The notes beneath the pieces were generated by a model that saw only the letters and a list, made by a program, of their open reading frames with translations, did not search any database and had not been told where the DNA came from. Of a DNA stretch of 34,986 nucleotides, positions 351 through 22,298 are shown in pieces. The position numbers and the translations under genes were made by a program. Numbering within the stretch: position 1 is the stretch's first letter; each line of letters starts with the position of its first letter. The stretch lies in UHGV virus genome UHGV-0285842. The stretch is one strand, 5' to 3'. Source of the stretch: a virus.

Positions 351-383
351 CATGTACCCACAATAACACGAGGGGGTACAAAA

Positions 384-1833: not shown

Positions 1834-1846
1834 GTTTGGAAATGGT

Positions 1847-4633: not shown

Positions 4634-5074
4634 TTATTGAGAAAAATTTGTTGTAATGGTTGAAGACCACGGGCATGAGTAGTAACCACGACCGCCACCG
4701 ATCAAACAAATGGTCGGACGGAAACCAGTAAGATCACAAAATGAATCAGTGTCATGCGCAGGAGAACGATGCTCTGCTTCGTCAGAGAAAATGTTTGCCA
4801 CCGGAGATTCCACTTTAACTTCCGGTGCTTCTTCAACATCTGACTTAACTTCTTCAACCACTGGTTCAACTTCTGGAGATTCTTCTTTTGTTTCTTCAAT
4901 GACGATCTCAGGTTCTTTCATTGCTTCAACCAGAGACGGATCAACTTCGTCGAATACCACTTTATCATCTGCGGTATATTTGTCTATAATGAAAAAATGG
5001 TCAGAAATATAGCTAACGTCGCCAGCATATTCTAACAAAAAAGCGCCCACAAGAGGCGCTTTTGTTTTATCCAT
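4634..5074 (-). CDS. hypothetical acidic Glu/Val/Pro-rich protein; start uncertain
   Basis: ORF in a low-complexity region. Candidate ATG at 5074 overlaps the stop of the M15 gene and would place the 5043-5059 hairpin inside the coding sequence; alternative internal starts exist. Confidence 0.3.
   Translation of the reverse strand: MDKTKAPLVGAFLLEYAGDVSYISDHFFIIDKYTADDKVVFDEVDPSLVEAMKEPEIVIEETKEESPEVEPVVEEVKSDVEEAPEVKVESPVANIFSDEAEHRSPAHDTDSFCDLTGFRPTICLIGGGRGYYSCPWSSTITTNFSQ
5037..5063. terminator. bidirectional hairpin at the end of the late/lysis operon
   Basis: Stem GCGCC (5043-5047) / GGCGC (5055-5059), A-run upstream and T-run downstream; immediately 3' of the M15 gene stop (5067). 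Confidence 0.5.
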
Positions 5075-5420
5075 TCCACCGTGATTTTTTTGATCTGGAA
5101 TCAATATGCGTAAAGGTTTTATATTTTCCTAAGCCGTATTGAGTAGGATATTTCCCATCAAGATAAGCATGAACAATATCAGGCGAGACACCCTTGATAA
5201 CAATGTCAGCCGCACGGCCTCGAACATGATAGCTATTGGTTGCACCGCCAACATTCTTGTTATGAGTCGGGCAACGGTTGCCACTGTTAATAATCACTGG
5301 TTTACCGAAGTGCTCTCGTACATCCTCAAGAATCACCAGTAATTCAGCGTCGATTGTATCATAATCACATTTTCCGCATTTACATTTAAATTCCTTGCGA
5401 GAAAAATGCTTACTTAACAT
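5067..5420 (-). CDS. peptidase M15-family zinc peptidoglycan peptidase (candidate endolysin)
   Basis: FSRKEFKCKCGKCDY...SGNRCPTHNKNVGGATNSYHVRGRAADI...THID matches the M15A/YcbK-type zinc-binding pattern (H, D, H). ATG 5420 with GGGGG Shine-Dalgarno. Confidence 0.7.
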   Translation of the reverse strand: MLSKHFSRKEFKCKCGKCDYDTIDAELLVILEDVREHFGKPVIINSGNRCPTHNKNVGGATNSYHVRGRAADIVIKGVSPDIVHAYLDGKYPTQYGLGKYKTFTHIDSRSKKSRWNG

Positions 5421-5429
5421 ATTACCCCC

Positions 5430-5777
5430 TTAGATCATTTCGAAGATATAACCAATAAAGCGCATACCCTTGATATAATAAGGAGCAGTGCCTACACACA
5501 CCGCGCGTGCATCGCCCAGACAGTTAAAGCTATAAGGATTAACCACATCAACTTCTTGTCCTACACGAAAACGATACTTAGGACGTTTAGCCAATGTAGC
5601 GACACAAAACACGGTCCCTTTTTCATGATCGCGGATACATTCTTTATATTGTTTATGTTTAACTCTCTTCGCCTCAAAATCATGTGTCATAGATTCTGGG
5701 CTAATGCCATTAATAAAAATACCGGAAAGCTGATCGACCGGATAAGTAGGAAATTCAGTGAAAATATTTTTAGCCAT
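5430..5777 (-). CDS. hypothetical protein (115 aa)
   Basis: ORF with GGGGG Shine-Dalgarno 7 nt before ATG 5777; stop overlaps the ribosome-binding site of the M15 gene. Confidence 0.55.
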   Translation of the reverse strand: MAKNIFTEFPTYPVDQLSGIFINGISPESMTHDFEAKRVKHKQYKECIRDHEKGTVFCVATLAKRPKYRFRVGQEVDVVNPYSFNCLGDARAVCVGTAPYYIKGMRFIGYIFEMI

Positions 5778-5815
5778 GTTATACCCCCATAAGTTTCTAT
5801 GAGGGTATTTATGGA

Positions 5816-6499
5816 TTAAACGTATTTCATGCGCGATTTAATGTGCTTATTGATGTTTTCAAGCATCATTGCTTCGTTGCTTTCCCACGATCCTAGCGTC
5901 GAATAACGAGTAGAAATTTTATCCGATTTAACGGCAACAATTCGCTTGCTCTGTTTCTGTATGCGTTTCTCTAAGCGACGTTTTGCCACCGCCGATCCAT
6001 TCCTAGCGCGTTTGGTTCGGGATTTCTTAGGCTTGTACTTCTTCATGATAAAAGTCCCTTCCTTGTTCTCTACCTTGATGAAGTTGCCGTTTTCGAGGTT
6101 ACGCATCATCTTACCGCCTTTGATGGCCTTAATGTTCCCGTGGGCGTCTAAGACCTTACCGTTGGCGATTGGAACTAGCTTATTGATTTTGCCCCCATCG
6201 AAATAGTGTTTCAGATAGTCGTCCTGACTGCCGATCTTCTTATCCTTATCCCTTGCGCCCTTGATGAAGATTTGGTGTCTCGTCCCTGATCGGTTCTTGT
6301 AGTTGGTATTACCTACAGCTTGCTGAGTCCAGCGAGTAGGTCTATCAACATTCTTGTTAATCTTCTTCTGGAGTGCTCTGGAAGCAAAGATCGCCCCTTC
6401 CCCTAGTGCCCTTTCGAATGTATCGGTTGCCTTTTCAGACCATTGCCGTAACGCTTTCTTAGTCCTTAGAGCGTTTCGTTTATTGGTACTGGTTGCCAT
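5816..6499 (-). CDS. hypothetical highly basic Lys/Arg-rich protein (227 aa)
   Basis: ORF with AGGGGGCTAAC ribosome-binding site before ATG 6499; strongly basic composition. Confidence 0.55.
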   Translation of the reverse strand: MATSTNKRNALRTKKALRQWSEKATDTFERALGEGAIFASRALQKKINKNVDRPTRWTQQAVGNTNYKNRSGTRHQIFIKGARDKDKKIGSQDDYLKHYFDGGKINKLVPIANGKVLDAHGNIKAIKGGKMMRNLENGNFIKVENKEGTFIMKKYKPKKSRTKRARNGSAVAKRRLEKRIQKQSKRIVAVKSDKISTRYSTLGSWESNEAMMLENINKHIKSRMKYV

Positions 6500-6500
6500 G

Positions 6501-6671
6501 TTAGCCCCCTAATAACGAAAAGACCCCCGCCAGTGTCCTTAGCAATTGTTCATCCACGGTCATAGCCGGGAGTTCAAGCCCAAAGGACGTAAGCAGAGGT
6601 CTAATTGCTACGTTATAAGTGAGGGCGACAATCAAGAGATAACCAAAATATTTCTTAAGTTTATTCTTCAT
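6501..6671 (-). CDS. small single-pass membrane protein (56 aa), lysis-associated candidate
   Basis: Internal ATG 6671 preceded by AAGGGGTGAATAT; hydrophobic segment YFGYLLIVALTYNVAI. Confidence 0.4.
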   Translation of the reverse strand: MKNKLKKYFGYLLIVALTYNVAIRPLLTSFGLELPAMTVDEQLLRTLAGVFSLLGG

Positions 6672-6690
6672 ATATTCACCCCTTTTATTA

Positions 6691-6969
6691 TTATTTTTGT
6701 TTGAGTATGTCGAGAACTTGGTCAAACTTAGCGTCCATCGCAACCACTTTCTTCTCTATACCGTGTAGTGTTTGTTCCATTTGGTAAACACGTTCAGCAA
6801 TCTGAGTATGGTTATTCTGCATCGTCTCAAACTTCTGGTTTAACAATGCGTCGCTGGATTCCAATTTCGACAATCTATTTTCTGTGGCTAATTGATTTCG
6901 GTGAAGTCTCCAAAGCCCACCACAAATTAAGGCGATAACACCGATACCGCCATATATAATTTCAGTCAT
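6691..6969 (-). CDS. membrane protein with N-terminal transmembrane segment and coiled coil (holin- or i-spanin-like)
   Basis: ATG 6969 with GGGGGCG Shine-Dalgarno; transmembrane stretch IIYGGIGVIALICGGLW then heptad-rich periplasmic/cytoplasmic part. Confidence 0.45.
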   Translation of the reverse strand: MTEIIYGGIGVIALICGGLWRLHRNQLATENRLSKLESSDALLNQKFETMQNNHTQIAERVYQMEQTLHGIEKKVVAMDAKFDQVLDILKQK

Positions 6970-7011
6970 TACGCCCCCGATATTTTTATATAATTTAATG
7001 GCAGAATTATT

Positions 7012-7057
7012 TAGATAAAAATAATCCCGCCTAACTCAAAAGAATTAAGCGGGATTA
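7012..7057 (-). terminator. hairpin terminator downstream of the J-like gene
   Basis: Stem TAATCCCGC (7022-7030) / GCGGGATTA (7049-7057), 18-nt loop, U-run on the minus-strand transcript. Confidence 0.5.
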
Positions 7058-7074
7058 ATTATTAGAATTAAATT

Positions 7075-10000
7075 TTAAGAAACAGAAATACCAGTAGCGG
7101 CTTTCTTAGTTACCATTACCGTTAGATCGCTGATATATGCACTTGGGTTATAGTTGTTAACGCCCTTACAGTAAACTTCAAAAGTCATTGTTACTGCCCC
7201 GTGTCCGGCTGGCATGTCAATAACTCCACTGTACATACAGCCAGAAGTTGCAGTGCGATCATATAGAACACCACCATTTTTCTTAACGATTAGTCGGCAA
7301 GTATCCCAATGATCGCTACTTTCGCCACGACGAACAGACCCGTTATGATGAATCGCTGGAATCACTATTTGGCGATCGAATGGATGATCATCTTCGACCC
7401 TTACAGTGATTGCACCATCAGGCCAGTTTGGTTGGCGATGTGGGAAACTCCTACCAACCACTTTCACGAAGTCACCACGCACCTGATTAGCATCAAGCAT
7501 ACCCAAAATGCGGCAACTTGAATTAATCGTTACGTTGTTCATTTCGCCGGAATCAGCCACCAAATGACCACGAATATTAGCGTGTCTAAAATGACAAGTG
7601 CCATCTTTGCCGATATACCATCCATCGTTACCATTCCAGTTATAAGACTGGATATAGTTACCAATTTTAGCATTATCGATAGAGCCATCAATGATATGAC
7701 CTGTTCCGATCTGTGCGTGTTGGATGTGAGCGCCGTTAATCTGGGCTGTGCCGATCTTAGCCGTGGTGATACTAGCATCACTAATCTGGGCTGTGCCAAT
7801 TGCAGCATTACGAATCATCGCATTATCAAGATAAACTTTGTTATCTTCGATGCCAAACGGACAAACTTCTGATCCGTCTTGTGGAGCTACCGCGATTTTA
7901 TCAGCCGTAAAGATGATTCTTGTCGGTTCTGCCGGATCATTGGTTGCGCTCATATGAATACCAGCCACGCGACCATCTGCATTAACTGCCAGATTATATT
8001 TGCTGTTAATGGTTCCCTTCAAAGCATCGATTTTTACATCTGCTTCCTGATTCACACCAGCAATCTTGCCATCCATTTCTACCCGAACTTGATCAATCTT
8101 ACTTGCGCTTGCTGCCTCACTGGTAGCAATTGCTTGTTTCAGGGTAGTAGCGGATGCGCTAACTTCTTTGGTGATATCGCCTTTCAGTTCAGCTTTAACC
8201 TGATCAATCTTAGTTGCGCTGGCTTGCTCACTGGTAGCAATCAGACTCTTGAGAGTATCGGCTGAGGCTTGGACCGTCTGCCCTGTCTCGGTAGTAATCT
8301 GTTTATGCATTGCATCAATCTTAGCATCGGCATTAGCGCCAGCTTGAGCAATAGCATCCGCGATGGTTTCATCTAAGCGATCTTGTAAACCAATCAGGTC
8401 TTCCAGTGCTTCTTTGTCCTGATCGTCCCAGCTAATGGTAGATTTCATTTGCATGAAATACGGTTCAGACCAAACAGCATCATCCATGCCGAAAATATCA
8501 TAGTGAGCACCACGGATATAATAATCACCGTCAGCCAAATCAAAGGAAGTATGACTAACGCTATTGGTAGTCACTGCCCTTGCATCGGAGAAAGTATTAT
8601 CGGTTGCATACTGGATGATTGACCCTGCATAGTCATGTTCTACGTCATCCGCCCAGCTAACAAACGCAGTATTAAAGCCACCACGCGCACTAAAACCTTT
8701 CATCGGCTTATGTTGTGGGTTGATAGCCACTAAACGCGCTGGGGCGCTCTCTGAGTTGTTATAGCCCTTGACTGATACTTCTACCGTCAATTCACGGGAA
8801 AGGCCGTTAAACTGGTTCATATCAAGCGTATAAGTCCATGATTCAGGATCGCGGGTACGGTACTGAATAGACTTACCAGCCTTGTTAGTTACCTTGATAA
8901 TGTATGCTTCAAACAGGTCACTAAACTTGTTAGCTTCACCGTTGATCATCACATCTAATTGTTGCTGATTTTCCCATTCGATAATCAGATCATTGCCTTC
9001 GAAAGTACCAGGCGTGCTACCCTGATTTTTGATTCGAATAACCGGAGTCGGCAATTCATAGGTAACAGTAGGATTCTGGTTAACCAGTTCCACCCATTCG
9101 GAACGAGCAATAATACCGAAAGCACAAACGCGGTAATCGTAGGAGCGATCTTTTGCCAGTGCATTGATATTGAAAATTTGCTGTGAAGTCTGCCCCAGCT
9201 TAATCCAGTTAGGCGATCCACTTACACGGTAATCAATCTGGAAACCGTAGCGGTTAAAATCTTCCGGTGCATCCCATGTCAAAGTAACGTTTTTACCGTG
9301 GATTGTCTCACCAGTTGCCTTAATTCTGAAATTAGTAGGCTTCTGTACTGTCATTGAATCCGGTAAACCAGTAGGTCTATTGTCTGGAGTCGCCGCATAG
9401 TTCAGGTCAGTATAAACCTGAGAATTATATTCTGTAGCGGTGATAGTCATCATCCCAGCAATACCAGAATCAATCGAGCGATCAATTGCAGTAATACGCC
9501 ATAAGGAATTATTCAGCTTCAATTCATCATATGTTACGCTGATAACGTCCCAAACTTCGGCAGTGAATGCGTCAGTAGTCATAAAGCTGATAACCTGAGT
9601 GATACGAGATTTATTTCGTTCTACACTCGCTAGTTTATCAATCTGGGCTTTAGACTTAACAAAACGATATTCAATATCTTTAGCGATAATTCGACCATCT
9701 TGACGAATAGTAGCATCGTTTTCAGCATCAGCCGGATAACGTAGCATTTGCTCTGAATAGTCGATTGATGGTTCTTGATACATCGCGTTAATGGTATTGA
9801 AATAACCGTTAGTGCCACCTGTTTTCAGTGATACCTTACCCATCATGATATTGTCTTCATTGAAGGTATGCTTAACAATATCAGGAGCATCCAGTTTCAG
9901 CGTAATACGTCCAAAGGATTCGAACATCACCCCGCCGAAAGTCTGCATAAGGCTAGTTAAGTTCTCTTTAAAGCTGGCGTTCGGATCACATGCACCGTTG

Positions 10001-10821
10001 GAATGTAAATCCATCTGGCGTACTTGTTTACGCACTTTCAGGAATGAATCAACGTTAATATTTTCAATCGGTACACTAAGACCATACTTTGTATTTGTCA
10101 GATAATGGAAAATCTGGTCCACGCCGTTAGTGCTAGCCTCAATAGCATTGGTTTCAAGGTTACGAATCTTTAAGCCCATAACATCGACCGCTACCTGGCT
10201 ATTAGGCTGGAGAATATCAACACCAGCAGCCAAAGATTTGTCATCACGACGTAAAACAATACACATGGTCGCAATGCCGTTACCCTGATACCGATCATCC
10301 CAATCAGCGCCCAAATGATGTTTAGCTAAATCCAATGCAGTGTTAGGATTTTTACCCGTGCGAAACTCGACTTCTAAAACTTTGCGGTATTCGTCTTTAA
10401 TGTTTCCTTTATCGAGAATGCCATCACGAATTGTCATATTCTGGCTAATGAGAACGTTTTTATTATCGATGTGCAGTGCTTTAAAGTGATCGATCTCACC
10501 TTCGGCAATAGCAAAAATTTGTACCAGCTTGTTATTTTCACGCTGTGAAATTGCCTTGTAAACGCAGATTGCACCCGTGCGGGTAGTACCAAAAAGAACG
10601 GGTAATACTGTTTTCGGATCGTTTGATGTTCCTAGTGTCACCGCATTATCTGGGCTTTGTACTTTCGGTGTTTTTGGTGCGCCTACAGTGGAAGCGATCA
10701 AGGTCATTGCACCAGCAGCCATCCCGATAGCGACTGCGGTCATAACAGAAAATGTTGCGGCTGCCGCCATCCCCGCCGAAGCACCAGCGATCACCGCGCC
10801 TACTAATATTTCAAATCCCAT
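7075..10821 (-). CDS. central tail fibre / host-specificity protein, lambda gpJ-like (1248 aa)
   Basis: N-proximal block LVQIFAIAEGEIDHFKALHIDNKNVL resembles the lambda J N-terminus; fibronectin-III-like segment; C-terminal 120 aa (DDHPFDRQIV...MPAGHG...MVTKKAATGISVS) parallels the lambda J receptor-binding end as I recall it. Start overlaps the stop of the upstream gene (TAATG). Confidence 0.85.
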   Translation of the reverse strand: MGFEILVGAVIAGASAGMAAAATFSVMTAVAIGMAAGAMTLIASTVGAPKTPKVQSPDNAVTLGTSNDPKTVLPVLFGTTRTGAICVYKAISQRENNKLVQIFAIAEGEIDHFKALHIDNKNVLISQNMTIRDGILDKGNIKDEYRKVLEVEFRTGKNPNTALDLAKHHLGADWDDRYQGNGIATMCIVLRRDDKSLAAGVDILQPNSQVAVDVMGLKIRNLETNAIEASTNGVDQIFHYLTNTKYGLSVPIENINVDSFLKVRKQVRQMDLHSNGACDPNASFKENLTSLMQTFGGVMFESFGRITLKLDAPDIVKHTFNEDNIMMGKVSLKTGGTNGYFNTINAMYQEPSIDYSEQMLRYPADAENDATIRQDGRIIAKDIEYRFVKSKAQIDKLASVERNKSRITQVISFMTTDAFTAEVWDVISVTYDELKLNNSLWRITAIDRSIDSGIAGMMTITATEYNSQVYTDLNYAATPDNRPTGLPDSMTVQKPTNFRIKATGETIHGKNVTLTWDAPEDFNRYGFQIDYRVSGSPNWIKLGQTSQQIFNINALAKDRSYDYRVCAFGIIARSEWVELVNQNPTVTYELPTPVIRIKNQGSTPGTFEGNDLIIEWENQQQLDVMINGEANKFSDLFEAYIIKVTNKAGKSIQYRTRDPESWTYTLDMNQFNGLSRELTVEVSVKGYNNSESAPARLVAINPQHKPMKGFSARGGFNTAFVSWADDVEHDYAGSIIQYATDNTFSDARAVTTNSVSHTSFDLADGDYYIRGAHYDIFGMDDAVWSEPYFMQMKSTISWDDQDKEALEDLIGLQDRLDETIADAIAQAGANADAKIDAMHKQITTETGQTVQASADTLKSLIATSEQASATKIDQVKAELKGDITKEVSASATTLKQAIATSEAASASKIDQVRVEMDGKIAGVNQEADVKIDALKGTINSKYNLAVNADGRVAGIHMSATNDPAEPTRIIFTADKIAVAPQDGSEVCPFGIEDNKVYLDNAMIRNAAIGTAQISDASITTAKIGTAQINGAHIQHAQIGTGHIIDGSIDNAKIGNYIQSYNWNGNDGWYIGKDGTCHFRHANIRGHLVADSGEMNNVTINSSCRILGMLDANQVRGDFVKVVGRSFPHRQPNWPDGAITVRVEDDHPFDRQIVIPAIHHNGSVRRGESSDHWDTCRLIVKKNGGVLYDRTATSGCMYSGVIDMPAGHGAVTMTFEVYCKGVNNYNPSAYISDLTVMVTKKAATGISVS
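8088..8258. repeat. imperfect ~60-bp direct repeat (period ~111 bp) inside the J-like gene
   Basis: 8088-8148 and 8199-8258 are ~80% identical (both contain GATCAATCTTA...CTCACTGGTAGCAAT), encoding repeated ATSE-AS-KIDQV peptide units. Confidence 0.6.
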
Positions 10822-11240
10822 TATTCACCCCCGAATCTATAAACTTGTTCATAGTCAATGTCTGAAACAGGAATGGTCATCCAGATACCATCTTCTTCAA
10901 CGAGGCCATAACCGGAATAATGAGGAACTACGGAATAATATTTGCGGTTTCCTAATTTGTGGGCTGTGACCAGTAAGTCGCCGTCCTGTAAATCATCAGT
11001 GACTAATTTGAAATGTTTCTTAATTGGTTGAAGGATATTTGTGTATCCGCTTAATTCTTTGCAGATTTTCAAGCCTTCTTCTTTAGTTGAATATTTTTTA
11101 TAAAGAGAATTATATAGGTCAGTACCAGCGAGAATATCGATGATCTTACATGCAATTATATTGCAATCATTCTCGCCTTGAACGAACTCCTGACCTATTA
11201 AAGAATTGATGTAATCGGTGATAAGCCTAGTTTTTAGCAT
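10821..11240 (-). CDS. tail assembly protein, K-like position, with NlpC/P60-like Cys motif
   Basis: ATG 11240 with GGAGG Shine-Dalgarno (track ORF start at 11396 lies inside the upstream gene). GENDCNIIACKIID and downstream His residues suggest a small cysteine-peptidase fold; position between L-like and J-like genes. Confidence 0.45.
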   Translation of the reverse strand: MLKTRLITDYINSLIGQEFVQGENDCNIIACKIIDILAGTDLYNSLYKKYSTKEEGLKICKELSGYTNILQPIKKHFKLVTDDLQDGDLLVTAHKLGNRKYYSVVPHYSGYGLVEEDGIWMTIPVSDIDYEQVYRFGGE

Positions 11241-11286
11241 GTTGAATACCTCCATGCTGTTATTTACTAGGCTTAGGGAGAAGGGA

Positions 11287-11940
11287 TTATTTCTTCGATG
11301 AATGCCACTTGCTTTCCGATTGCCAGCGCCCGGTCCTTGAGAAGAATAGATCATTCTCGTTTCCGGCATAGGATCGGTGGATACCATCGGAGGCATGACT
11401 ACGAGCGTTTTTATCTAGAACTTCCCAGATACTATTAAGCTGAAATTCTGATTCGTTTTTACACTCATCATCTTCATGTTCGATGTTAATCCCGATGGAA
11501 TCGACTACCCCACGGAAAACAGGGTAAGTGGTTTCAACCTTGCCCGTGTTAGGGTTCAGGAACACCATTTCGATTTTCACATCTGATTTATCGAATTGCT
11601 TGTTTCGAATCAGGGTAATGTATTCCTCGCGAACGTTAGAAACGGTTACGTTAATCCCGTTGTTGTTAATCTCCTTCTCTTCGGTATTCGATGAGATTTG
11701 AAGAAAATCACCCGTTGCGAGATACGTAAATCCGTTATAGTCCAAATCGAAATACCCATCAGTAAGCCGTAGAACGTCCCCTGACGCTGTTATCACTTCG
11801 ATAATGTGAAACATCGATCCAGTGGAAAAAAGCTGCGGTAGCGTCAATCTAGTCACGTTCTGACCTGTCTGGTCGTTGTAGACCTCGATGAAGTCCAGAT
11901 TAGTGCATAGTTTGCTGAATGATTCCTGAATAGTTGCCAT
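11287..11940 (-). CDS. minor tail protein, L-like position (217 aa)
   Basis: ATG 11940 overlaps the stop of the upstream gene (TAATG); synteny with lambda L. Confidence 0.5.
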   Translation of the reverse strand: MATIQESFSKLCTNLDFIEVYNDQTGQNVTRLTLPQLFSTGSMFHIIEVITASGDVLRLTDGYFDLDYNGFTYLATGDFLQISSNTEEKEINNNGINVTVSNVREEYITLIRNKQFDKSDVKIEMVFLNPNTGKVETTYPVFRGVVDSIGINIEHEDDECKNESEFQLNSIWEVLDKNARSHASDGIHRSYAGNENDLFFSRTGRWQSESKWHSSKK

Positions 11941-12500
11941 TATACATTCTCCACTAATTCGAATTTCATCTTGCCAATCTGGGCGATCTTCCAATCGATG
12001 TTTTCAGTTTTGAGAACAAATTCACCTTCTACGTTCTGATACTTGATCACCTCACCCGCCAGGACGTTCTGACGCAAGTTAGGGAAGAGTTTCATTTCAC
12101 CACCTGATTTCACGTCTTCGGTGATCGTGTAGATTTTCTTGTGGTTCTCAAACTGGATGACAGTTCCCGCTTTCAGTGTTCCGGTGAAGTTGGAGATTCT
12201 CACCTTACGCCCACCGCGAGCAGTACCAGCAGCAGCCGTTACCATCTGGCGTACATCACCTGTATATTTTGAAAAGTAAGACAGTGGCACACTAAAAGGA
12301 CGACCAAAAAGGTGACGTGCTACAAATTCTTTTACTTCGTTAATATCCTGAGCCATGTAATTCGCGGTAAATTCTGCTTCGTAAAAATGGATGCCAGTAA
12401 AGCGACGCTGGAACTTACCGGAGATAGATTGCGCCTTGAAGAAAGGCTGTTTTGATTTAAGAGTAAAATCTGTGATTTTAATATTCTTGGATTTGAACAT
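11940..12500 (-). CDS. minor tail protein, M-like position (186 aa)
   Basis: ATG 12500 with GGGGG Shine-Dalgarno that lies in the 3' arm of the 12504-12547 hairpin; follows the tape measure gene. Confidence 0.45.
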   Translation of the reverse strand: MFKSKNIKITDFTLKSKQPFFKAQSISGKFQRRFTGIHFYEAEFTANYMAQDINEVKEFVARHLFGRPFSVPLSYFSKYTGDVRQMVTAAAGTARGGRKVRISNFTGTLKAGTVIQFENHKKIYTITEDVKSGGEMKLFPNLRQNVLAGEVIKYQNVEGEFVLKTENIDWKIAQIGKMKFELVENV

Positions 12501-12503
12501 AGA

Positions 12504-12547
12504 AAAGCCCCCATAGTTTTATGATTATTTATCACTATGGGGGCTTT
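12504..12547 (-). terminator. 13-bp perfect hairpin with U-tract immediately after the tape-measure stop; 3' arm contains the next gene's Shine-Dalgarno
   Basis: Arms AAAGCCCCCATAG (12504-12516) and CTATGGGGGCTTT (12535-12547), 18-nt loop; on the minus-strand RNA the stem is followed by UUUUCUAUG (start codon of the 11940-12500 gene). Confidence 0.6.
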
Positions 12548-12550
12548 TAA

Positions 12551-14980
12551 TTACATCTTACGACGCTGAACGTCTTCTATCGCCTGAGCAACAAACTTAG
12601 CGTGACGTTTGATAGCATCCATGACCATCTTGTCTGAGCTATTAACGTTGCCGTTAATGTTCAAAGGCGCATTTACTTCAATCGGCTGAGAGTTACCACC
12701 ACCTGATTTTTGAGCAGCAAGGAAGTCTTTCAAATCACCGTTAGTACGCTGATCAACTACTCGTTCACCCTTATCAAGCAACCATGTACCCTCACGAGGG
12801 ATGTTATCAATACCATCATGAGCCATACCGCTAACGTTAGTAGACTTGATGTTTGCGATGTTCCCCATGTTCTGAGAAACAGCCAATGCAGCAGCCGCGA
12901 TTTTTTGACCTGTGGTGACGTTGGTCGGATCGTTCCATGCATCGGTAGCAGCCGTCCACATGTTCACCGTCGCTTGTCCAATGGAGAATGCTTTATGAGC
13001 ATTGAAAGCCATCTGCATAGCTTTAGTGTTTTCCTGCCCGAAGAGAGTCATTGCAGCAGCAAAACCGCCGTACATATCATCGGCTATTGACTGGCGAGCA
13101 TCAGCATATTTCTTCTCAATTGCAGCCATTCGTTTTTGATGGTTTTCATTGAGTTTTTCTAATGCTTCCATCCGTTTAGCCGGATCATTAATACCGTCAA
13201 TCTTGAGTTTATCGGTCTTATAATCTTGTTCAGCATCCGATTTCTCTTTATCGATTGCATTAAATTTAGCAAACGGATTATTTGAGTCTTGATAATCATA
13301 ACCACTAGTTAATTGATTGGTTTTATAACCATCCATTCCCTGTAAAGAATTTTCAATCTGAGAATAGTTTTGCTCGGTATCGTTCACACGACGCATATAT
13401 TCTTCGTAGGAGATAGCTTTACCATCAAGTAACCGTTTATGGCTTTCTAGCTCGTTGTCCCTGATTTGTTGCAATTGTGTTAAAGCATTCAGAGCATCAA
13501 TCGGATCAGCACCCAACATCATTTTATAAACGTTTTCAGTATTCTGATCGATTAGCGCCTGGCGTTTCGCGGCTGCGTCTTCCTGAGAGATTAAGCCCAG
13601 AGCTAACGCGTCGTTCACATCTTTTAAGCTGTTTTGCAACTGGCTATTTTGAGAAGTGATAGACGCTGCAACTTGCCCTTGCAATTTAACATCAAGTGCA
13701 TTCAGTCGCTTGATTGCATCCTCGCGTGCTTTCTGTGCTTTTTCTGCGGCTTCCTTAGCCTTTTTAGCTGCCTCTTCCGCTTTCTTGCGTGCTTCTTCTT
13801 CGGCTTTCTTCTCATTACCAGACTTACCCAATGATTCTGGTCTTACTGGTTTATTTGGTATAGTCAAATCACGGTTAGGATCTGCCTTGCGGGTTAGATG
13901 TTCCCCGTTATCGACAACAATCAGAGAGCCATTTTTCTTATAAGAATCACCAAAACGTTTCTTAAATCCTTCAACATCAAAGCCAGCAGTACGAGGATCG
14001 ACACCAGCACCACGGATCGCGGCCTTTTCCCAATCTGCCAGATTATTCCAACGCTTTTCTTTATTGTACTTGTCAATAATTTTTTGAGCGTCTTTATGGT
14101 TGGCGTTAAGAATACCGCCAGTTGCGGTCTTGCCTTCTTTATTCAGTCGATCTAATGCCCTGAATAGAGAACTCTTTTCCCAATCAATATTAAACCAGTC
14201 AAATAACCAGTTTAAACTATCAACCAGCGGACCAGAAATGGTCATACCGACACCTTTCAGGTTATTTTCCAGCTTATTGATATTTTGAGAAAATTTATCA
14301 TATTTTTTAGCGTTTTCTTCGGTGACGTTAACAGATTGATTCTGAATAGCGATCATCGCCTCTTGAGCAGTATTATATTTCTCAAGCTGGCTGGTCATAT
14401 GGCTTGAATCACTGGCTAAAGATTCCATCATGAACTTGATTTCAGCCATTGATTTTCCGGCTTTCTTCATGTCATAGAACACTTGGATCGCCGCTTTCAT
14501 ACCACCTTGCGGATCAGTCATGAAGTGAGCATAGTTTTCTAACTTAAGGCCAACCGATTCTAAGTCATCGGCAATACCGCCACCGTTAGCCCATGCATCA
14601 CCCATTTTATCTAAGGTGTCTTTGTTGATATCACCAAATTTTTCAACTGTTAGGCCAGTGCCAGCAAATTCCTTTTCTAGTCTTTGAAGGGATTCAATCG
14701 AGAGTCCGGTCGCCTTAGATACTTCTGAATACTGTTTAACGTATTCCGCACCAGCTTTAGCGGCTGCAACCACTGCGGTCGCAACTAAGCCGATACCACC
14801 AGCAGCTAAACCAGCAGAGCCAGCAATACCACGAAGAGATCCAGTCAGACCAGACAAGCCACCACCAAAATCAATATTACTTGCCTTTTCAGACAAATCA
14901 TCGAGCAGGTCAGCGGCTTCACTAGTGCTTCTCTTTAGCCCTTTATTATCCCCTTCTATTGTTACTATATGTTTTGTCAT
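12551..14980 (-). CDS. tail tape measure protein (809 aa)
   Basis: Size and position after the G/T-like chaperones; N-terminal hydrophobic Gly/Ala segment, long coiled-coil Lys/Glu/Ala region. ATG 14980 with AAGGGGTAA. Confidence 0.8.
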   Translation of the reverse strand: MTKHIVTIEGDNKGLKRSTSEAADLLDDLSEKASNIDFGGGLSGLTGSLRGIAGSAGLAAGGIGLVATAVVAAAKAGAEYVKQYSEVSKATGLSIESLQRLEKEFAGTGLTVEKFGDINKDTLDKMGDAWANGGGIADDLESVGLKLENYAHFMTDPQGGMKAAIQVFYDMKKAGKSMAEIKFMMESLASDSSHMTSQLEKYNTAQEAMIAIQNQSVNVTEENAKKYDKFSQNINKLENNLKGVGMTISGPLVDSLNWLFDWFNIDWEKSSLFRALDRLNKEGKTATGGILNANHKDAQKIIDKYNKEKRWNNLADWEKAAIRGAGVDPRTAGFDVEGFKKRFGDSYKKNGSLIVVDNGEHLTRKADPNRDLTIPNKPVRPESLGKSGNEKKAEEEARKKAEEAAKKAKEAAEKAQKAREDAIKRLNALDVKLQGQVAASITSQNSQLQNSLKDVNDALALGLISQEDAAAKRQALIDQNTENVYKMMLGADPIDALNALTQLQQIRDNELESHKRLLDGKAISYEEYMRRVNDTEQNYSQIENSLQGMDGYKTNQLTSGYDYQDSNNPFAKFNAIDKEKSDAEQDYKTDKLKIDGINDPAKRMEALEKLNENHQKRMAAIEKKYADARQSIADDMYGGFAAAMTLFGQENTKAMQMAFNAHKAFSIGQATVNMWTAATDAWNDPTNVTTGQKIAAAALAVSQNMGNIANIKSTNVSGMAHDGIDNIPREGTWLLDKGERVVDQRTNGDLKDFLAAQKSGGGNSQPIEVNAPLNINGNVNSSDKMVMDAIKRHAKFVAQAIEDVQRRKM

Positions 14981-14991
14981 AAATTACCCCT

Positions 14992-15333
14992 TTAACCGCT
15001 TCTGAGTTTCTCAAGCAAAGATGAATCAAACATGTTCAGCATTGTCGCTTTACGTTCTTCTTCTTTCTTGCGTACAAGTTCTTCCTGTTCTTCTTTAGTT
15101 TTAAAGAGTTTTTCTTCTCTAATTAATTGGAATTGGCTAGGCTTGAGTTTCTTTGCAGTTTCACGAGTCATTCCTTGCGACGTCATATACATGGAATACT
15201 GCAACATCGCATTCTGCATATCATGAAACGCGGGGCTTTGTGGTTCTAAGTAGGTGTCGAAAATGTATAATTTCCAAAATAGAGTGATTGGCATATTATC
15301 CATTTCATCTTTACTAAGCCCCGATCTCATCAT
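14992..15333 (-). CDS. tail assembly chaperone, T-like downstream frame (113 aa)
   Basis: ORF in the -1 frame relative to the upstream G-like gene, no Shine-Dalgarno of its own, directly upstream of the tape measure gene. Confidence 0.5.
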   Translation of the reverse strand: MMRSGLSKDEMDNMPITLFWKLYIFDTYLEPQSPAFHDMQNAMLQYSMYMTSQGMTRETAKKLKPSQFQLIREEKLFKTKEEQEELVRKKEEERKATMLNMFDSSLLEKLRSG

Positions 15334-15362
15334 TTGCCGGAAATAGAAATTCAGAAGCGGGT

Positions 15363-15671
15363 TTACTTTACCTCGTTTTCAATTACCGCCGGATCTTGCA
15401 TCAATGAGGCTTGAGCAACCAAACCGATTAATTCACTGCGGACGTTAGTATACAGTGCCTTAACTTGTTCAATAGATTCAAATACTGGTTTACCGTCTTC
15501 ATCTTCAATACAACGAAGAATCGAACGTTCGTCACGGTCTTCTTTATCAGTATTAAAAACATGTTCGTTAAATTCTTTTACTGACATAGGGCGAGCATAG
15601 AAAGTGAATCCACCGATGGTCAGAGATTCGCGTTTCGGAGAGAGTGCGGCTAACATTTCGTTAATATTCAT
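15363..15671 (-). CDS. tail assembly chaperone, G-like (102 aa)
   Basis: Small acidic protein between tail tube and tape measure genes; AGAGGAAACAAGA before ATG 15671. Confidence 0.55.
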   Translation of the reverse strand: MNINEMLAALSPKRESLTIGGFTFYARPMSVKEFNEHVFNTDKEDRDERSILRCIEDEDGKPVFESIEQVKALYTNVRSELIGLVAQASLMQDPAVIENEVK

Positions 15672-15720
15672 TCTTGTTTCCTCTTAAGTTAATTAGATAT
15701 GTTTATTTAGAATTGGAAAC

Positions 15721-15744
15721 AAAAAAGCCACCCCGAAGGATGGC
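15721..15744 (-). terminator. intrinsic terminator (UUCG-loop hairpin plus U6) after the tail-tube gene
   Basis: Minus-strand RNA reads GCCAUCCUUCGGGGUGGC followed by UUUUUU. Confidence 0.65.
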
Positions 15745-15753
15745 TAGATAATA

Positions 15754-16224
15754 TTAGACTTTCTGGAAAACAGCTTGTTTAACCGGAGCACCATCTACTA
15801 CAAAGGTGAAGGTACGGCCTACTACAGCATCCTCACCACCGGTCATGGTAGTTTTAGACAGGAAGCCGTTATAAGCGATATGTACACCAGATTTTTTCGT
15901 AGCATCGATGTAGTAAGCAATTTTAAGCTGTACGCGCTTACCGTCTTCGGTTGCTTTAATCAGTTTTTCGTGTACTTCGTTACCAGGCATGTAGTTGATC
16001 GAAAGTTCGATATCCGGTACAGACATACGACCAACCAGCTTACGGTTATACGGACCACCGAAGTTAGGAACATCGATAGTAGAACGTTCTACACCAGTTT
16101 CCGGGAAAGCCGCACATTCTGGAATTTCCAGATAGCTTTCACTGTCAAGATCGGTGTTAGTTACTTCTTCATGCAGAAACAGACCAACGAGGCCACCAGA
16201 AAAAATATCAAATTTAGTAGTCAT
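15754..16224 (-). CDS. major tail tube protein (156 aa)
   Basis: Position immediately upstream of the chaperone pair, size and beta-rich composition; AAGGA Shine-Dalgarno; followed by a strong terminator as is common for abundant structural genes. Confidence 0.55.
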   Translation of the reverse strand: MTTKFDIFSGGLVGLFLHEEVTNTDLDSESYLEIPECAAFPETGVERSTIDVPNFGGPYNRKLVGRMSVPDIELSINYMPGNEVHEKLIKATEDGKRVQLKIAYYIDATKKSGVHIAYNGFLSKTTMTGGEDAVVGRTFTFVVDGAPVKQAVFQKV

Positions 16225-16278
16225 TATTCTTTTCCTTCTATTTTAAACAATAGGGCACATACCCGTAATTCTATTTAT

Positions 16279-16581
16279 TTAGCGGTTGCTCAAACGTCTA
16301 TAACGAAGATGAGCGATCCCCCTATTTGTGCTAACGGTAATTACCGCCCCTTGCGGTGCAATACAAGAATGAATCTGTCCCCAATCATGACCCTTATGGC
16401 TTCCAGAAACACACAAACCATGAATAAGCAATTCAGAGTCACCACCGCCACCACCGGAAGAATGAGCACAGAATGAAATAGTCCCGAAAGCGTCGGCTGT
16501 CCAACCGTTAGGAATATCAAACCATCCCTGATTTGCTTTACCCGCCCTATTCCCCAAAGCGCCATCTACCCAAAATGCCAT
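16279..16581 (-). CDS. small Gly-rich protein, paralog 3 of a tandem triplet (100 aa)
   Basis: AGGAGAA Shine-Dalgarno; start overlaps the stop of paralog 2; shares M-x-x-W, FDIPNGW, GL, WG and C-terminal aromatic/basic motifs with the two upstream genes. Confidence 0.6.
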   Translation of the reverse strand: MAFWVDGALGNRAGKANQGWFDIPNGWTADAFGTISFCAHSSGGGGGDSELLIHGLCVSGSHKGHDWGQIHSCIAPQGAVITVSTNRGIAHLRYRRLSNR

Positions 16582-16886
16582 TAGTGCATTCTCCTGAATT
16601 TAAAATAATGCAAACTACCTTTACCCAATGTAAAGCTAACGGTAGCACCAGCGCCAACTAAAGAACTAGCGCCCCAACTCCCAGCATCACCAGCATGATG
16701 ACCTGATTCAATCAATCCATTTACAGCCAATTCAGAATCAAGATCACCAGCACCGTTAATGGCTTCCATATGAGCAAAAACAATTCCGCATGAATCAGTA
16801 ACCCAGCCGTTGGGGATATCAAAATATCCACCATTAGCCCAAATACTAATAGCGTTTGACATTCTTTGATTTATCCATCCAGCCAT
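16581..16886 (-). CDS. small Gly-rich protein, paralog 2 of a tandem triplet (101 aa)
   Basis: GGAG Shine-Dalgarno before ATG 16886; conserved FDIPNGW block. Confidence 0.6.
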   Translation of the reverse strand: MAGWINQRMSNAISIWANGGYFDIPNGWVTDSCGIVFAHMEAINGAGDLDSELAVNGLIESGHHAGDAGSWGASSLVGAGATVSFTLGKGSLHYFKFRRMH

Positions 16887-16888
16887 AA

Positions 16889-17185
16889 TTAAAACTCCAT
16901 GAATTTAAAATATTCAACACCACCTTCACCCCCTAAACCAAAGGAGACGGTGCAGCCAGCAGGAACAAACGAATTTATAGTAGATCCCCAATTGGTCCCA
17001 CCACGACGACGAGCAACGGTCAAACCATCTACGTTAATATGTGCATCAGACCACCCACCACCAGCATTATGACGCATTACAGCGACACCAGCACGAGCAG
17101 TACCATAGCCGTTAGGAATATCAAATACATGCCATTTTAAAGCATCGATTTTAGTATTAATTTCACTACTTACCCAATATCCCAT
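16889..17185 (-). CDS. small Gly-rich protein, paralog 1 of a tandem triplet (98 aa)
   Basis: AAGGA Shine-Dalgarno before ATG 17185; conserved FDIPNGY block. Confidence 0.6.
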   Translation of the reverse strand: MGYWVSSEINTKIDALKWHVFDIPNGYGTARAGVAVMRHNAGGGWSDAHINVDGLTVARRRGGTNWGSTINSFVPAGCTVSFGLGGEGGVEYFKFMEF

Positions 17186-17223
17186 ATAAGAATCCTTAGC
17201 GGAGATTTCTCCCCGCTTTCCAA

Positions 17224-20200
17224 TTACCCTAATTTAGCTTCAATTGCAGCAAGACGTTCACGAAGAAGTTTATTTTCTTCGCTCATTTCTTGGACCGCTT
17301 TAATTAAAAGCGCGTTCACTGCGGAGTTTGAAATTGTTAAAATTTCTTCTGGGTTATCAAGACCACCAATTTTTGCGGTTTTAACAGCTTCCGGTAATAC
17401 CTCTTGTAAATCCTGTGCGATAATACCAATCTCATGACCTATAACTTCTCGGTCATTAAGAGATTTAACTTTATCGTAGGTTTTAACTTTGAGTTTATTT
17501 ACCTTATCCACCGCATTTTCTTCGTAATCTTCAACATTAATTTTCAGACGACCATCGGAACGAATATAAACATCGTTAAAGTTACCATTACCAGGAGAAT
17601 AGAAAGTACCATCATGATGGAACTCGAATACAGCTTGAGGATGACCAGCCGCTGGCGATGCCTCCGCAGATCCAACACGAATAATAGCTTGCCCCCAATT
17701 TTGAGGAACACGACGCATACCAAAATCGACGGCAGTTGTATACCCTTGATTGGTGATTAAACTTCTTCCTTTAATAATTGGATAATAGCTATCTGGTCCA
17801 ACATAGCCATGATCGACGAATATTGGAGCTTCTAATCCCCATTGATCGCCCCAACCTCCAGATTGGCTAGCAGTCCAACGTTCACCATGAACATAGAATC
17901 GAACGTTATTGACATGAGTCATTTCGACACCTTTTGGACTTAGCGCGATATCACCCGCGTTTGTAATATTGATAGCAGCATTAGTAGCATAGCTATAGAA
18001 CGCTAATCCATTATCAGCACCACCTTTACCGATATACCAGTTGTTATTATCAGCACAAGTACCCAGCAAATATATAGACGAATCACCCGTTTCGGCATTC
18101 ATGACGATTGCGTCAGAACCACGATTAACTTTAAGTTTCCCGAAGAAGGTGTTTTTAATGGTATTATCACCCAATCGTTCAAATTCTGCTAAAAATCCTT
18201 TTGAGTCACGAAGACTTAAAACGTTATTTCGACCTGTATTGCTTGCACCCCAATGGACGAGTTCCATATAGTCCATAGATTGACGAGAACCAGCTTTAAA
18301 GAACAGGTTGTCTTCGAGACGAGTGCTACCATCAATTCCAAGATGCAAACAACGAGCAGTTTCAGTGCCACCTAAATATAATCCACCGTCAGCAAAATTA
18401 TAGCTGAATGGTCTACGAGTATTCCACGGTCCAAATGAATCACCGAGATCTGTGGTAAGAATATGGAAGCCAACGCCATCATTTCTAAAAATTAAGCCAT
18501 AATTGCCACCTTTAACAGCCAAACGAGCATTTTCAGATAATGCAACTTCGCTATTCATTACAATTTTCTGGCCTTTACCGCCAGTAATATGCAATTCACC
18601 ATCTTCAATCAGGTTTATAGAGTTTTGACCGTTATCGTTCCACCAAATAAAATCTTTGGTCGTCAAATCACCAAAACCAAACCAACCATTACGAACATCT
18701 TGACCAGTGCGATAATCCATAAAATTAAAATGGCTTGATTCGTTTGGTCCTCGACGAATATCAATACCAGCATTACCAGTACCACCATCCAATGTTAATT
18801 TCTTGATATGTAACCCGGATGTTGCTGTCAGCAATAATTCCTGATTTGTATCTTCGTATCCAGTAGCAAGACGATATGCGTTATCATCAACTGTCTCATG
18901 CCAGATTGTAGCTGGTGCACAACTACGGAAGCGACGCAACATCTTTTTAGCATTTGTCGGTTGTTCGTTTAAATGCTCAATATCATATTGGCCTTGATGA
19001 TTGCCAGCAAAATTTAACGTCCCACGGTTGCTAAAGTTATTGAACGATGAAATGTTAAGAGCATCAAAAATTTCGTCTGCAACAGGTTTTTCACCACCCA
19101 GATATTCAGGAGTATCCAACAGGTTTAAAGAAACACCACCGGAAGAAACTTGATATTCTGCTAAAACAAATCCTGTATGTGCACCGTAGTAAGCGTAAAG
19201 ATCGTAATTGTCGCCATCGGTTGGAATAGCGCAAAAATGTTGTTCATAATGCCAAATAGTATAATACGCATTGAATACAACACCTTTCGGGCTATTGTTG
19301 CCGCATCGAATCACCAATTCGATAATATTGGCTTGTCCATTATGTCCTACGTTATAACCGTTACCACCAACCAAACGGATCTTAGCCGTGCGACCGTGTT
19401 GTTGTGGCATTGTCAAAGTGCCTAGTTTAAACCAACCACCCTCGATACCAAAATTAAGCGTCTTCTGGAACAGTCGGTCAATTTCTGCTTTCGAATATGC
19501 GCCAATTTCAGCCGGAGTAGGTTTATCGCCTTCATGATACATGCGGTGAGAATATGACAAATTACCTAATTCATCATAGCCGTATGTTCTTACAGTAGCA
19601 TGTGGATTAGACCCATAAGTGAACTCGAAGCCACGAGCATGATTAACACCAGATGGATGCGGAACATGCAAGATCATTGCAATATGACCCGCCAGGTCAT
19701 TCATGCGGAATGCACCAAAGTAATCAAGATTACGCGCATTTGGATCATCAAAATAGTTTGCGGTCTTAGACAGCAAATAACCATCAGTATAAGTGTTTAC
19801 GTGTTTTTTGATGTACTTGCCATCAGCAGATCCATCGGCTGCATCAATACGGCTTTCTAAACGTGCCAGTTCAGAATCAGTGTAAGACTTGTTATTGTCA
19901 ACTTTGCTATGAATTGCTGTATTTTTGGCTTCAACATCACGGGTTAATGCTGCGACGTTATCCGCTGCCTCTTGCTTATTGGCTGCAATCACACCAGTAA
20001 GGTTATTGTAGGTGTCAGTTAACTGATTTTCCGCATAGACTTTATTTGCTGCGATAGTGCGGTCAGTTTCTGCCTTAATCAAATCAACCTTGTCATTGAT
20101 TGCTTTGTCATTGCTTGCGATGGTTGCATCGGTGCGGGATTTAATATCATCAACTTTTTTATTGATGCGGGTGTCCAGTTCCTGAGTTGCTACAGCAGCC

Positions 20201-20631: not shown

Positions 20632-20644
20632 CTAATCACCTCAC

Positions 20645-20677
20645 ATAAAACAGGAATAAGGGAGGCGTTAACCTCCC
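20645..20677 (-). terminator. hairpin terminator between the 277-aa gene and the fibre gene
   Basis: Stem GGGAGG (20660-20665) / CCTCCC (20672-20677); U-rich tract on the minus-strand transcript. Confidence 0.45.
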
Positions 20678-20702
20678 CGTCATGTTTTATTTAGAGAAGC
20701 AA

Positions 20703-21536: not shown

Positions 21537-21545
21537 TATTACCCC

Positions 21546-21968
21546 TTAAAAACGCGCTAGATAAGAAAATTTAAGGCTAAGTGTCCCAACGATACCCCCA
21601 TCACTAGAATCATCGTCATAATCGGTATTAGAAGCTACTGGAGTGATATCTGAAATAGAGAAGCCCAAATCTTTAAATCGTGGGTTATCTGGCTGAATCT
21701 GGATTATCTGGCAAATACCCTCATGAATTTTGGTTTCATGATTCTGAGAATACAACTGCATTTCGATAACGCATTCAGCTTGCATTGCATTACCACCACG
21801 GACCCTATTGTAAGTCTCATTCATTCCGGTAATCCAACAAACCACATCATCACTAAAGCCTTGCTGAGTTTGTTCTACGTTTAAAGCCAGACCTAAATCT
21901 TGTTCGATAATATCCTGCAAGGCGCGTTTGATTTTCAGTCTAGGCATATTATTAACGGTAGCGAGCAT
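21546..21968 (-). CDS. head-tail joining / tail completion protein (about 140 aa)
   Basis: ATG 21968 with GGGGG Shine-Dalgarno (track ORF start at 22016 lies inside the upstream gene); position after capsid and connector genes. Confidence 0.4.
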   Translation of the reverse strand: MLATVNNMPRLKIKRALQDIIEQDLGLALNVEQTQQGFSDDVVCWITGMNETYNRVRGGNAMQAECVIEMQLYSQNHETKIHEGICQIIQIQPDNPRFKDLGFSISDITPVASNTDYDDDSSDGGIVGTLSLKFSYLARF

Positions 21969-22242: not shown

Positions 22243-22272
22243 AGTTACCCCCTTTATGGAGTATTTACATAC

Positions 22273-22298
22273 AAAAAAGCCCCACCGTTAGGCAGGGC
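22273..22298 (-). terminator. intrinsic terminator after the capsid gene
   Basis: Minus-strand RNA GCCCUGCC-UAAC-GGUGGGGC (8-bp stem with two G-U pairs) followed by UUUUUU. Confidence 0.6.

Follow-up and report, generated by a model that had tools for sequence, protein, structure and literature searches.

The known late promoters of the T4 type belong to T4-like myoviruses, whose genomes encode gp55, gp33 and gp45. Their consensus is TATAAATA in T4 and KVP40 and NATAAATA in cyanomyoviruses (PMC2984593). At T4 e, soc, I-TevI and segB, as well as at Aeh1 mobE, such a promoter is nested with a stable stem whose 3′ strand contains the Shine-Dalgarno sequence (SD); transcripts arriving from upstream are untranslatable, and promoter-initiated transcripts lack the inhibitory strand (PMC3014915, PMC2988022). 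Here we describe a hairpin in an E. coli/Salmonella prophage that resembles the e/soc/I-TevI class in that the SD of the distal tail protein (Dit) gene lies in its 3′ strand and a box of the TATAAATA type occupies, or immediately precedes, the part that encodes the 5′ strand or loop. It departs from that class in its setting (a temperate prophage of siphovirus type, 35 kb long, in which gp55, gp33 and gp45 went undetected and transcript starts are predicted), in its added features of an intrinsic terminator (A-run, GC stem and U-run immediately behind the preceding stop codon), and in the gated gene, which encodes an essential tail part and not a lysis protein or homing endonuclease. Our preferred reading, with a probability of roughly one half, is that a terminator and a promoter have been compacted here into one cassette where two late transcription units meet.

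The window, i.e., the whole stretch analyzed (34,986 nt, virus genome UHGV-0285842), corresponds to a ~35-kb prophage that resides in ycdX, is integrated by a serine recombinase, and encodes a large terminase, a portal, a head-protease fusion, a T4-like long tail fiber, tail tube, tape measure, tail tip and endolysin. Among 5,426 complete E. coli genomes, 62 carry it, including those of ETEC and pig isolates, and its genes bear hypothetical annotations there; the family is also present in Salmonella and Proteus. A phage DNA search yielded short matches to the tape-measure gene and no close relative among isolates, and protein searches of a phage collection with Dit and the capsid matched solely DCP80 (43–46% identity), a GenBank record filed as a T4-like phage that contains a triplicated rIIA and other signs of scrambled assembly. 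Separately, a scan of genome contigs returned a single locus, in a dubious bin. Our literature search found no description of this prophage family, nor of a promoter inside a terminator loop. The Dit gene opens the tail-tip block and is followed by the hub-N, DUF6950 and J-like genes (Table 1); given these neighbors and the functional assignment of Dit, the M-like label of the initial annotation is acceptable and its M/L/K/J-like naming of the block is fair.

Table 1 Features of the window that bear on the tape-measure/Dit hairpin, with the stem versions found in relatives
Feature	Coordinates	Strand	Details
Tape-measure protein gene, 809 aa	12551-14980	(-)	PHROG tape-measure families, best 4e-67
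5′ arm of hairpin, AAAAGCCCCCATAGT	12534-12548	(-)	15/15 complementary to 3′ arm; C-run pairs with SD; compensatory changes in relatives
Box in loop, GATAAATA	12526-12533	(-)	Resembles T4 late promoter (N/T)ATAAATA; predicted transcript start ~12520, just 5′ of 3′ arm
16-nt hairpin loop, GATAAATAATCATAAA	12518-12533	(-)	Possible inner 3-bp helix GAT/ATC; TGAT/ATCA in relatives
3′ arm of hairpin, ACTATGGGGGCTTTT	12503-12517	(-)	Holds SD GGGGG 12512-12508 and U-tract start 12506-12503
U-rich tail, UUUUCUAUGUUC	12495-12506	(-)	Overlaps start codon ATG 12500-12498; U4 or U5 in relatives
Distal tail protein (Dit) gene, lambda M-like position, 186 aa	11940-12500	(-)	phrog_1302, 1.3e-16; N-terminus MFKSKNIK conserved
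Hub-N (Gp84_N) gene	11287-11994	(-)	Pfam match; tail-tip block
DUF6950 gene	10821-11396	(-)	Pfam match; tail-tip block
J-like gene, 1248 aa	7075-10821	(-)	Tail-tip block
Module after major head gene	22262-22299	(-)	Hairpin + T6 22299-22278; TAAATA 22267-22262; SD GGGGG; ATG 22242
Module after major tail protein (tail tube) gene	15704-15745	(-)	Hairpin AGCCATCC-TTCG-GGGTGGCT + T6 15745-15726; TAAATA 15709-15704; SD; ATG 15671
Module after J-like gene	7008-7057	(-)	16-bp hairpin + T5 7057-7022; TAAATA 7013-7008; SD GGGGG; ATG 6969
Second SD-masking hairpin, arms similar	5784-5812	(-)	ATAAATA 5812-5806, directly followed by CCCTCATAG-aaac-TTATGGGGG 5805-5784; ATG 5777
Back-to-back ATAAATA boxes in 87-nt divergent region	28512-28543	both	28518-28512 (-) before large terminase gene (first late gene); 28537-28543 (+) before 200-aa ORF
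Stem version, window			GCCCCCATAGT/ACTATGGGGGC
Stem version			GCCCTC.../...GGGGGC; U·G pair
Stem version			GCCTCC.../...GGAGGC; both sides changed, giving canonical GGAGG SD
Stem version			GACCCCCTAGTT/AACTAGGGGGTC
Stem version			ATACCCCCTAGTT/AACTAGGGGGTAT
Stem version			ATACCCTCTAGTTT/AAACTAGGGGGTAT
Stem version, L081			AACCCCCT/AGGGGGGTT

All genes around the junction lie on the minus strand, on which the junction, only 50 nt long, from the tape-measure stop codon (TAA, 12553-12551) to the Dit start codon (ATG, 12500-12498) reads TAA tt AAAAGCCCCCATAGT gataaataatcataaa ACTATGGGGGCTTTT ct ATG. An inverted-repeat search identified two 15-nt arms (12548-12534/12517-12503) with 100% complementarity and a 16-nt spacer, the longest perfect inverted repeat of the window; by a hand calculation that assumes equal base frequencies and spacers of ≤40 nt, ~1e-3 perfect 15-bp repeats would be expected in 35 kb. 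The core stem GCCCCCAUAGU/ACUAUGGGGGC supplies 11 bp, rising to 15 bp once A-U pairs are counted, and is followed by the tail UUUUCUAUGUU, such that the RNA past the stem reads UUUU C U AUG UU. The initial annotation had described a perfect 13-bp hairpin at 12504-12547, 4 nt after the tape-measure stop: the stem is indeed perfect, its length is 15 bp (the earlier span being the same stem minus one A-U pair), and the distance from the stop codon measures 2–3 nt. The same annotation correctly located the GGGGG SD in the 3′ arm, 7 nt from the Dit ATG; the AUG itself sits 2 nt outside the stem. GGGGG is a genuine SD type in this prophage, as (A)GGGGG(T) occurs 5–8 nt before the ATG of several other genes. 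Folding of 91 nt of RNA across the junction gave −32.4 kcal/mol (z = −8.1), a stability reached by 0 of 200 shuffled sequences. The hairpin is unlisted by the terminator scan because that scan admits loops of 3–8 nt only, and a search of the whole window against Rfam 15 produced no match reaching the gathering score, with only chance-level matches (E ~0.8) near the hairpin. An overlapping 67-aa ORF (12332-12535, minus strand) was considered as coding and rejected; near-identical relatives differ by single-nucleotide indels in their runs of T, C and G, which break every frame and show the hairpin segment to be non-coding.

The junction was compared across 33 near-identical viral contigs together with E. 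coli, Salmonella and metagenome relatives having 62–91% Dit identity. The hairpin is kept in all relatives that have the tape-measure gene upstream, in seven stem versions (62–99% Dit identity; Table 1). Each 5′ arm pairs with its own partner at 12–14 of 14 positions, as against only 7–10 of 14 when arms are exchanged between the window-type (ATAGT) and L040/L039/L044-type (TAGTT) families. When the raw junctions were aligned with MAFFT and folded with RNAalifold, the two stem versions fell out of register and no pairs beyond those of the C/G runs emerged, so a helix-anchored alignment was used instead. In this alignment, which is fitted to the helix and favors structure, 98% of cells were paired; the figure for shuffles was 77%, none of 500 reached the observed level, and nine pairs were altered on both sides. 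One-sided C-to-U changes in the 5′ arm (L002, L044) leave U·G pairs in the sense RNA and would produce A-C mismatches in the antisense RNA; because pairing is preserved only in the former, the selected structure is that of the minus-strand transcript, not of DNA or antisense RNA. With the fold and the repeat search, these comparisons support a genuine stem-loop, selected as sense-strand RNA. Furthermore, a T-run of 4–5 follows the stem in all tape-measure-adjacent relatives whose Dit identity is 69% or more. In L103 the A-run no longer pairs and the core stem is retained, and in L039 and L044 the tape-measure stop lies 11–12 nt upstream of the stem.

Within the loop, the hexamer TAAATA is invariant across an alignment of 14 distinct junctions in which both arms and the remaining loop vary, and in four lineages 8 nt separate it from the 3′ arm. 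The heptamer ATAAATA is not enriched in the window (12 copies against 10.6 expected); its placement alone is non-random. Each of the 12 lies outside coding sequence and on the strand of the gene that follows, compared to a non-coding share of just 38% for the occurrences of 21 heptamers of the same composition (binomial P ~9e-6 for 12 of 12), and the ten copies with an identified downstream start precede it by 25–47 nt (25–34 nt in eight). Additional TAAATA copies are found in late intergenic regions besides the 12 exact heptamers. Divergent intergenic regions have boxes too, one facing each gene; at 28512-28543, a divergent region at the head of the late operon where two boxes stand back to back, promoters must exist.

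Four other late-region junctions, following the head, tail-tube, J-like and terminase genes, share a common order of elements: stop codon, GC hairpin, T-run, 5–11 nt, TAAATA, 19–38 nt, SD and ATG (the T-run being poor after the terminase gene). The tail-tube module is kept in relatives and in the structural module of DCP80, with TAAATA invariant. Among these junctions, that of Dit is the one case with the box inside the hairpin loop. A second SD-masking hairpin, at 5812-5784, copies the nested-promoter layout of T4 more closely than the Dit site does. A T4-type start 6 nt after its box would leave out precisely the C-run whose partner is the SD. The 115-aa gene behind this second hairpin was considered as a holin by analogy to T4 e, an idea that was dropped, as the sequence is without a hydrophobic segment.

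The box persists in more distant relatives (35–51% Dit identity). In all, about a dozen lineages, with identities as low as 35%, have it 23–31 nt ahead of the Dit start, both where the tape-measure gene precedes Dit and where a divergent gene does. In L094/L130 (35% identity), the tape-measure/Dit junction carries a textbook terminator, AAACCCGC-cacgt-GCGGG-T7, with ATAAATA directly after it. The gene upstream of Dit is divergent in L095, L096, L129 and the L083-L092 group; in the last of these it is lysozyme-like, the box is mirrored with one copy per gene, and the two SDs complete an inverted repeat. Among these distant relatives, the box is absent from the Dit junction in L093, the DCP80 module and L097-99 only. 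DCP80 itself holds a colinear relative of the structural module, in which UUCG-loop terminators are followed by perfect TATAAATA.

Taken as promoters, the boxes are of the T4 late type in form. The window consensus, nATAAATA, matches the cyanomyovirus version NATAAATA (PMC2984593); an 8-mer (T/N)ATAAATA core stands without a −35 element in non-coding sequence, on the coding strand a few tens of nucleotides ahead of late genes, and frequently right after a terminator. Since T4 late transcripts start at the sixth nucleotide after the box (PMC3014915), the Dit transcript is predicted to begin at ~12520. A σ70 scan covering 5,000-24,000 called no σ70-type site among the boxes of that stretch. σ70 needs a T at −7; the box has neither this T nor a −35 element, and was not retained as a σ70 promoter, and an apparent extended −10 (TG-n-TAAATA) seen in some relatives was discarded, the dinucleotide being TC in 13 close relatives.

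Two points weigh against the promoter reading and set the boxes apart from known T4-type late promoters. The main weakness is the factor: no gp55-, gp33- or σ-like protein was found in the prophage by PHROGs, Pfam and NCBIfam profiles on ~30 ORFs, a PDB sequence search and tblastn, and the same profile, PDB and Foldseek searches found no encoded set of gp55-type σ, gp33 and sliding clamp. An AlphaFold2 model (pLDDT 75) of the 200-aa ORF that adjoins the late promoter region had no Foldseek match; structure modeling covered this ORF, and a divergent specificity factor may exist among the small ORFs. Secondly, boxes also precede apparent early genes, the integrase operon included, which one would not expect of a promoter used only late. 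A broader proposal, speculative and quite unlikely in our estimate, is that this prophage family runs its genes from T4-type NATAAATA promoters without recognizable gp55, gp33 or gp45, the boxes being read by an unrecognized encoded factor or by the late machinery of a superinfecting T-even phage. Were this wiring true, the nested hairpins at Dit and 5812-5784 would limit translation to box-initiated RNAs. The combination of T4-like genes and a colinear module in DCP80 could be a trace of association with T-even phages, or merely a chimeric assembly.

As a terminator, the Dit hairpin has most of the expected form. Like the intrinsic terminators that phage late operons have behind highly expressed structural genes, of which canonical examples follow the head, tail-tube and J-like genes here, it has a GC-rich stem (longer than the customary minimum of 5 bp) directly before a U-tract, lies at the sense-strand 3′ end of a unit directly after a stop codon, has U·G variants that fit only sense RNA, and would have a partial-termination role. 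It differs from the usual intrinsic terminator in its 16-nt loop, in a U-tract of 4–5 U that runs into a start codon, and in its conserved loop motif. Loops of intrinsic terminators are usually 3–8 nt, and one of 16 nt is unusual for efficient termination; the effective loop could shrink to 5–6 nt, with a 5-nt bulge, through an inner helix, GAT/ATC here and TGAT/ATCA in relatives of the L040 type. To the initial annotation, the element looked like a strong intrinsic terminator. Position and form fit a terminator (location after the stop, GC stem, U4-5 tail, the hairpin series in the operon, the terminator of L094/L130), whereas "strong" does not follow, the loop being atypical and strength not readable from sequence.

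As a translational gate, the hairpin has the arrangement seen in T4 on long transcripts, where the SD is paired in a stable stem: in the predicted fold of read-through RNA, the unpaired probability is 0.00 for each of the five SD guanines, and opening the segment from SD to AUG would cost 25.3 kcal/mol. At the sequence level, the late-promoter motif is inside the hairpin, 8 nt before the 3′ arm. For an RNA starting at 12520, the SD is predicted to be accessible, with an unpaired probability of 0.4–0.6 and an opening cost of 4.6 kcal/mol.

The observed structure, its conservation, the motif and the motif placement are consistent with the following course of events. Upstream transcripts (major tail protein, chaperones, tape measure) would fold the 15-bp stem on emergence, and the stem with its U4-5 may end a fraction of them, or at least give them a protective 3′ hairpin. 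RNA that reads through would carry both arms, with the Dit SD locked by the pairing described and Dit poorly translated, to an extent that we infer from thermodynamics. A polymerase starting ~6 nt past the box would produce a Dit-hub-K-J message from the base of the 3′ arm, with no 5′ arm, a free SD and a leader of ~20 nt, as suggested by motif distribution, conservation and the T4 precedent. The loop box thus probably restarts transcription, and the tail-tip genes are probably made from hairpin-free message; their expression would rest mainly on the internal promoter and not on read-through. A start in the loop would supply the expression route that is needed because an essential tail gene lies behind a stem of about −25 kcal/mol. 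The initial annotation had proposed that the distal tail genes require read-through and ribosome-mediated melting, a requirement that lapses if transcription begins at GATAAATA, since such a start would omit the 5′ arm and leave nothing to melt.

The alternative that survives best, possible but unlikely in our view, is a plain terminator with SD masking and no internal promoter, in which tail-tip expression comes from read-through, the SD is opened by ribosomes finishing the tape-measure gene, and the output of distal tail genes is lowered. The terminator-like form and the SD pairing agree with it, and the stop codon lies just 2–3 nt from the stem. The ribosomal mRNA channel reaches ~+13 to +15 from the P site. 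By this geometry, a terminating ribosome would cover 12550 to ~12542 and open 5–7 of the 15 bp, freeing the A-U pairs and two of the five SD guanines, but 8–10 GC-rich pairs would survive it. In coupling hairpins such as that of MS2 coat-replicase and those of several E. coli operons, the downstream SD likewise pairs with sequence next to the upstream stop; the Dit SD differs in that its partner lies after the stop and not inside the upstream ORF, and ribosomes would reach only the outer third of the stem. Nor is the geometry conserved, given the 11–12 nt that separate stop and stem in L039 and L044, and coupling is impossible in relatives with a divergent upstream gene, yet there the box and an SD-containing inverted repeat persist. 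This alternative also leaves the invariant loop TAAATA and its genome-wide placement unexplained. The motive offered for such an arrangement by the initial annotation, stoichiometry control, is weak, because the tape measure and the distal tail protein are both low-copy parts.

Another explanation, which we regard as improbable, is an RNA processing or stability element, with the hairpin protecting a 3′ end after cleavage and the AUAAAUA boxes acting as RNase E-type sites, whereby a cut in the loop would separate the arms and free the SD. In its favor, the boxes are strand-specific and AU-rich, are predicted to be unpaired, and adjoin stable hairpins, which is the setting that RNase E sites usually have; no σ factor would be needed to explain them. 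Against this, the arms would still form a 15-bp duplex after a loop cut, and strict invariance over 6–7 nt exceeds what RNase E needs. The mirrored boxes of the 47–87-nt divergent regions fit promoters, and as RNA motifs would need promoters inside the neighboring ORFs. The motif, moreover, equals the T4-type late promoter consensus (PMC2984593).

Finally, the element could act as DNA: a palindromic operator, bound by a dimeric regulator of the phage, would flank and control the box promoter, and the RNA hairpin would be incidental. We consider this highly improbable: a perfect inverted repeat does bracket the box, and in the lysozyme-divergent relatives spans both boxes and both SDs, yet the one-sided C-to-T changes keep pairing only as U·G in sense RNA, the arms differ between close relatives by paired substitutions and indels with which a protein would have to co-evolve, the other 11 boxes are without such arms, and the conserved T-run and A-run are terminator features.

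For annotation, the locus indicates that long-loop hairpins skipped by terminator finders can be real and that a conserved loop sequence is worth reading. For the prophages, a fairly common and uncharacterized family of E. coli and Salmonella carries putative T4-late-like promoters, which raises the question of the factor that reads them. If the terminator-promoter model is true, a single 46-nt element ends one late unit, starts the next and limits translation to the correctly initiated message, which would be unusually compact, and a trick specific to T4 would extend to temperate siphovirus-type prophages, with a terminator fused in.

The hairpin at the junction of the tape-measure gene and Dit, the distal tail protein gene (12503-12548, - strand), was compared among near-identical prophages, and in five of them (L008, L010, L018, L021 and L116) the lengths of its C-run, G-run and T-run were found to differ by 1 nt, leaving single-base bulges; these differences could reflect slippage or homopolymer sequencing error. 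In L011/L059 (IMGVR_UViG_2690316210_000001, positions ~1-96), the 5′ edge of the hairpin is adjoined by an IS1 end (…GGTGATGCTGCCAACTTACTGATTTAGTGTATGATGGTGTTTTTGAGG, reverse complement), which stands in place of the tape-measure 3′ end and the A-run, and in E. coli PigCaeca_2 the same prophage is cut off upstream of the fibre gene by another IS1.

Another hairpin masking a Shine-Dalgarno sequence is located at 5784-5812 (- strand), with arms (CCCTCATAG and TTATGGGGG) that resemble those of the Dit hairpin. An ATAAATA box lies immediately 5′ of it, and a 115-aa ORF (5430-5777), itself ahead of the endolysin gene (5067-5420), lies 3′. The leader of the fibre gene (20632-20702, - strand) presents the reversed order, in that a TAAATA box (20693-20688) precedes the hairpin. 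The latter, GGGGAGG-ttaa-CGCCTCCC followed by a U-rich tail, may function in the leader as an attenuator or stabilise the 5′ end.

The fibre-like gene is itself flanked on both sides by phrog_158 genes (see table), an odd arrangement for a siphovirus-type tail module. The interval from the fibre-like gene to the tail tube gene contains three paralogous ORFs in tandem (16279-17185, - strand), each ~100 aa long and with an FDIPNGW motif in common; none of them gave a family match.

Family matches in the tail module surrounding the fibre-like gene
Feature	Length (aa)	Coordinates	Strand	Basis
Major tail protein, phrog_158	156	15754-16224	-	family match
T4 long-tail-fibre distal subunit, phrog_1699 (2e-127)	1135	17224-20631	-	family match
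Major tail protein, phrog_158	277	20703-21536	-	family match

Homologues of Dit and of hub-N, the next tail-tip gene, also occur as an isolated pair (46-51% identity) in L045, L046, L088-L092 and L121-L128, where no tape-measure or J-like gene is present for several kb around. Its neighbours are a lysozyme-like gene, oriented divergently, and a serine recombinase, a setting unusual for tail-tip genes. A siphovirus-type structural module colinear with that of the window prophage was found in the 141-kb record of Escherichia phage DCP80 (PQ671644.1; L105-L108), classed as a T4-like Gaprivervirus. Its proteins are 43-46% identical to those of the prophage, and the module contains both UUCG terminators and perfect TATAAATA boxes. 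Among the T4 genes of this record are fragmented and triplicated ones (rIIA in three copies, spackle in two, terminase truncated); the record probably represents a chimeric assembly, perhaps joining two phages out of one lysate.

The left end of the window (3-533, - strand; see also L100) is a fragment from the C-terminal part of ycdX, a host gene with a PHP domain. The prophage splits this gene, and the serine recombinase gene (1832-3526) is adjacent. Towards the other end, a ~1.5-kb AT-rich stretch (31500-33010; GC 0.34) holds no convincing ORF and carries three ATAAATA boxes (32443+, 32643+ and 33007-); several of these bear an upstream TTTTTTC-N3-4 extension, common to the boxes at 31500, 4637 and 30535. 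This stretch may serve in regulation, act as an origin or encode small RNAs.
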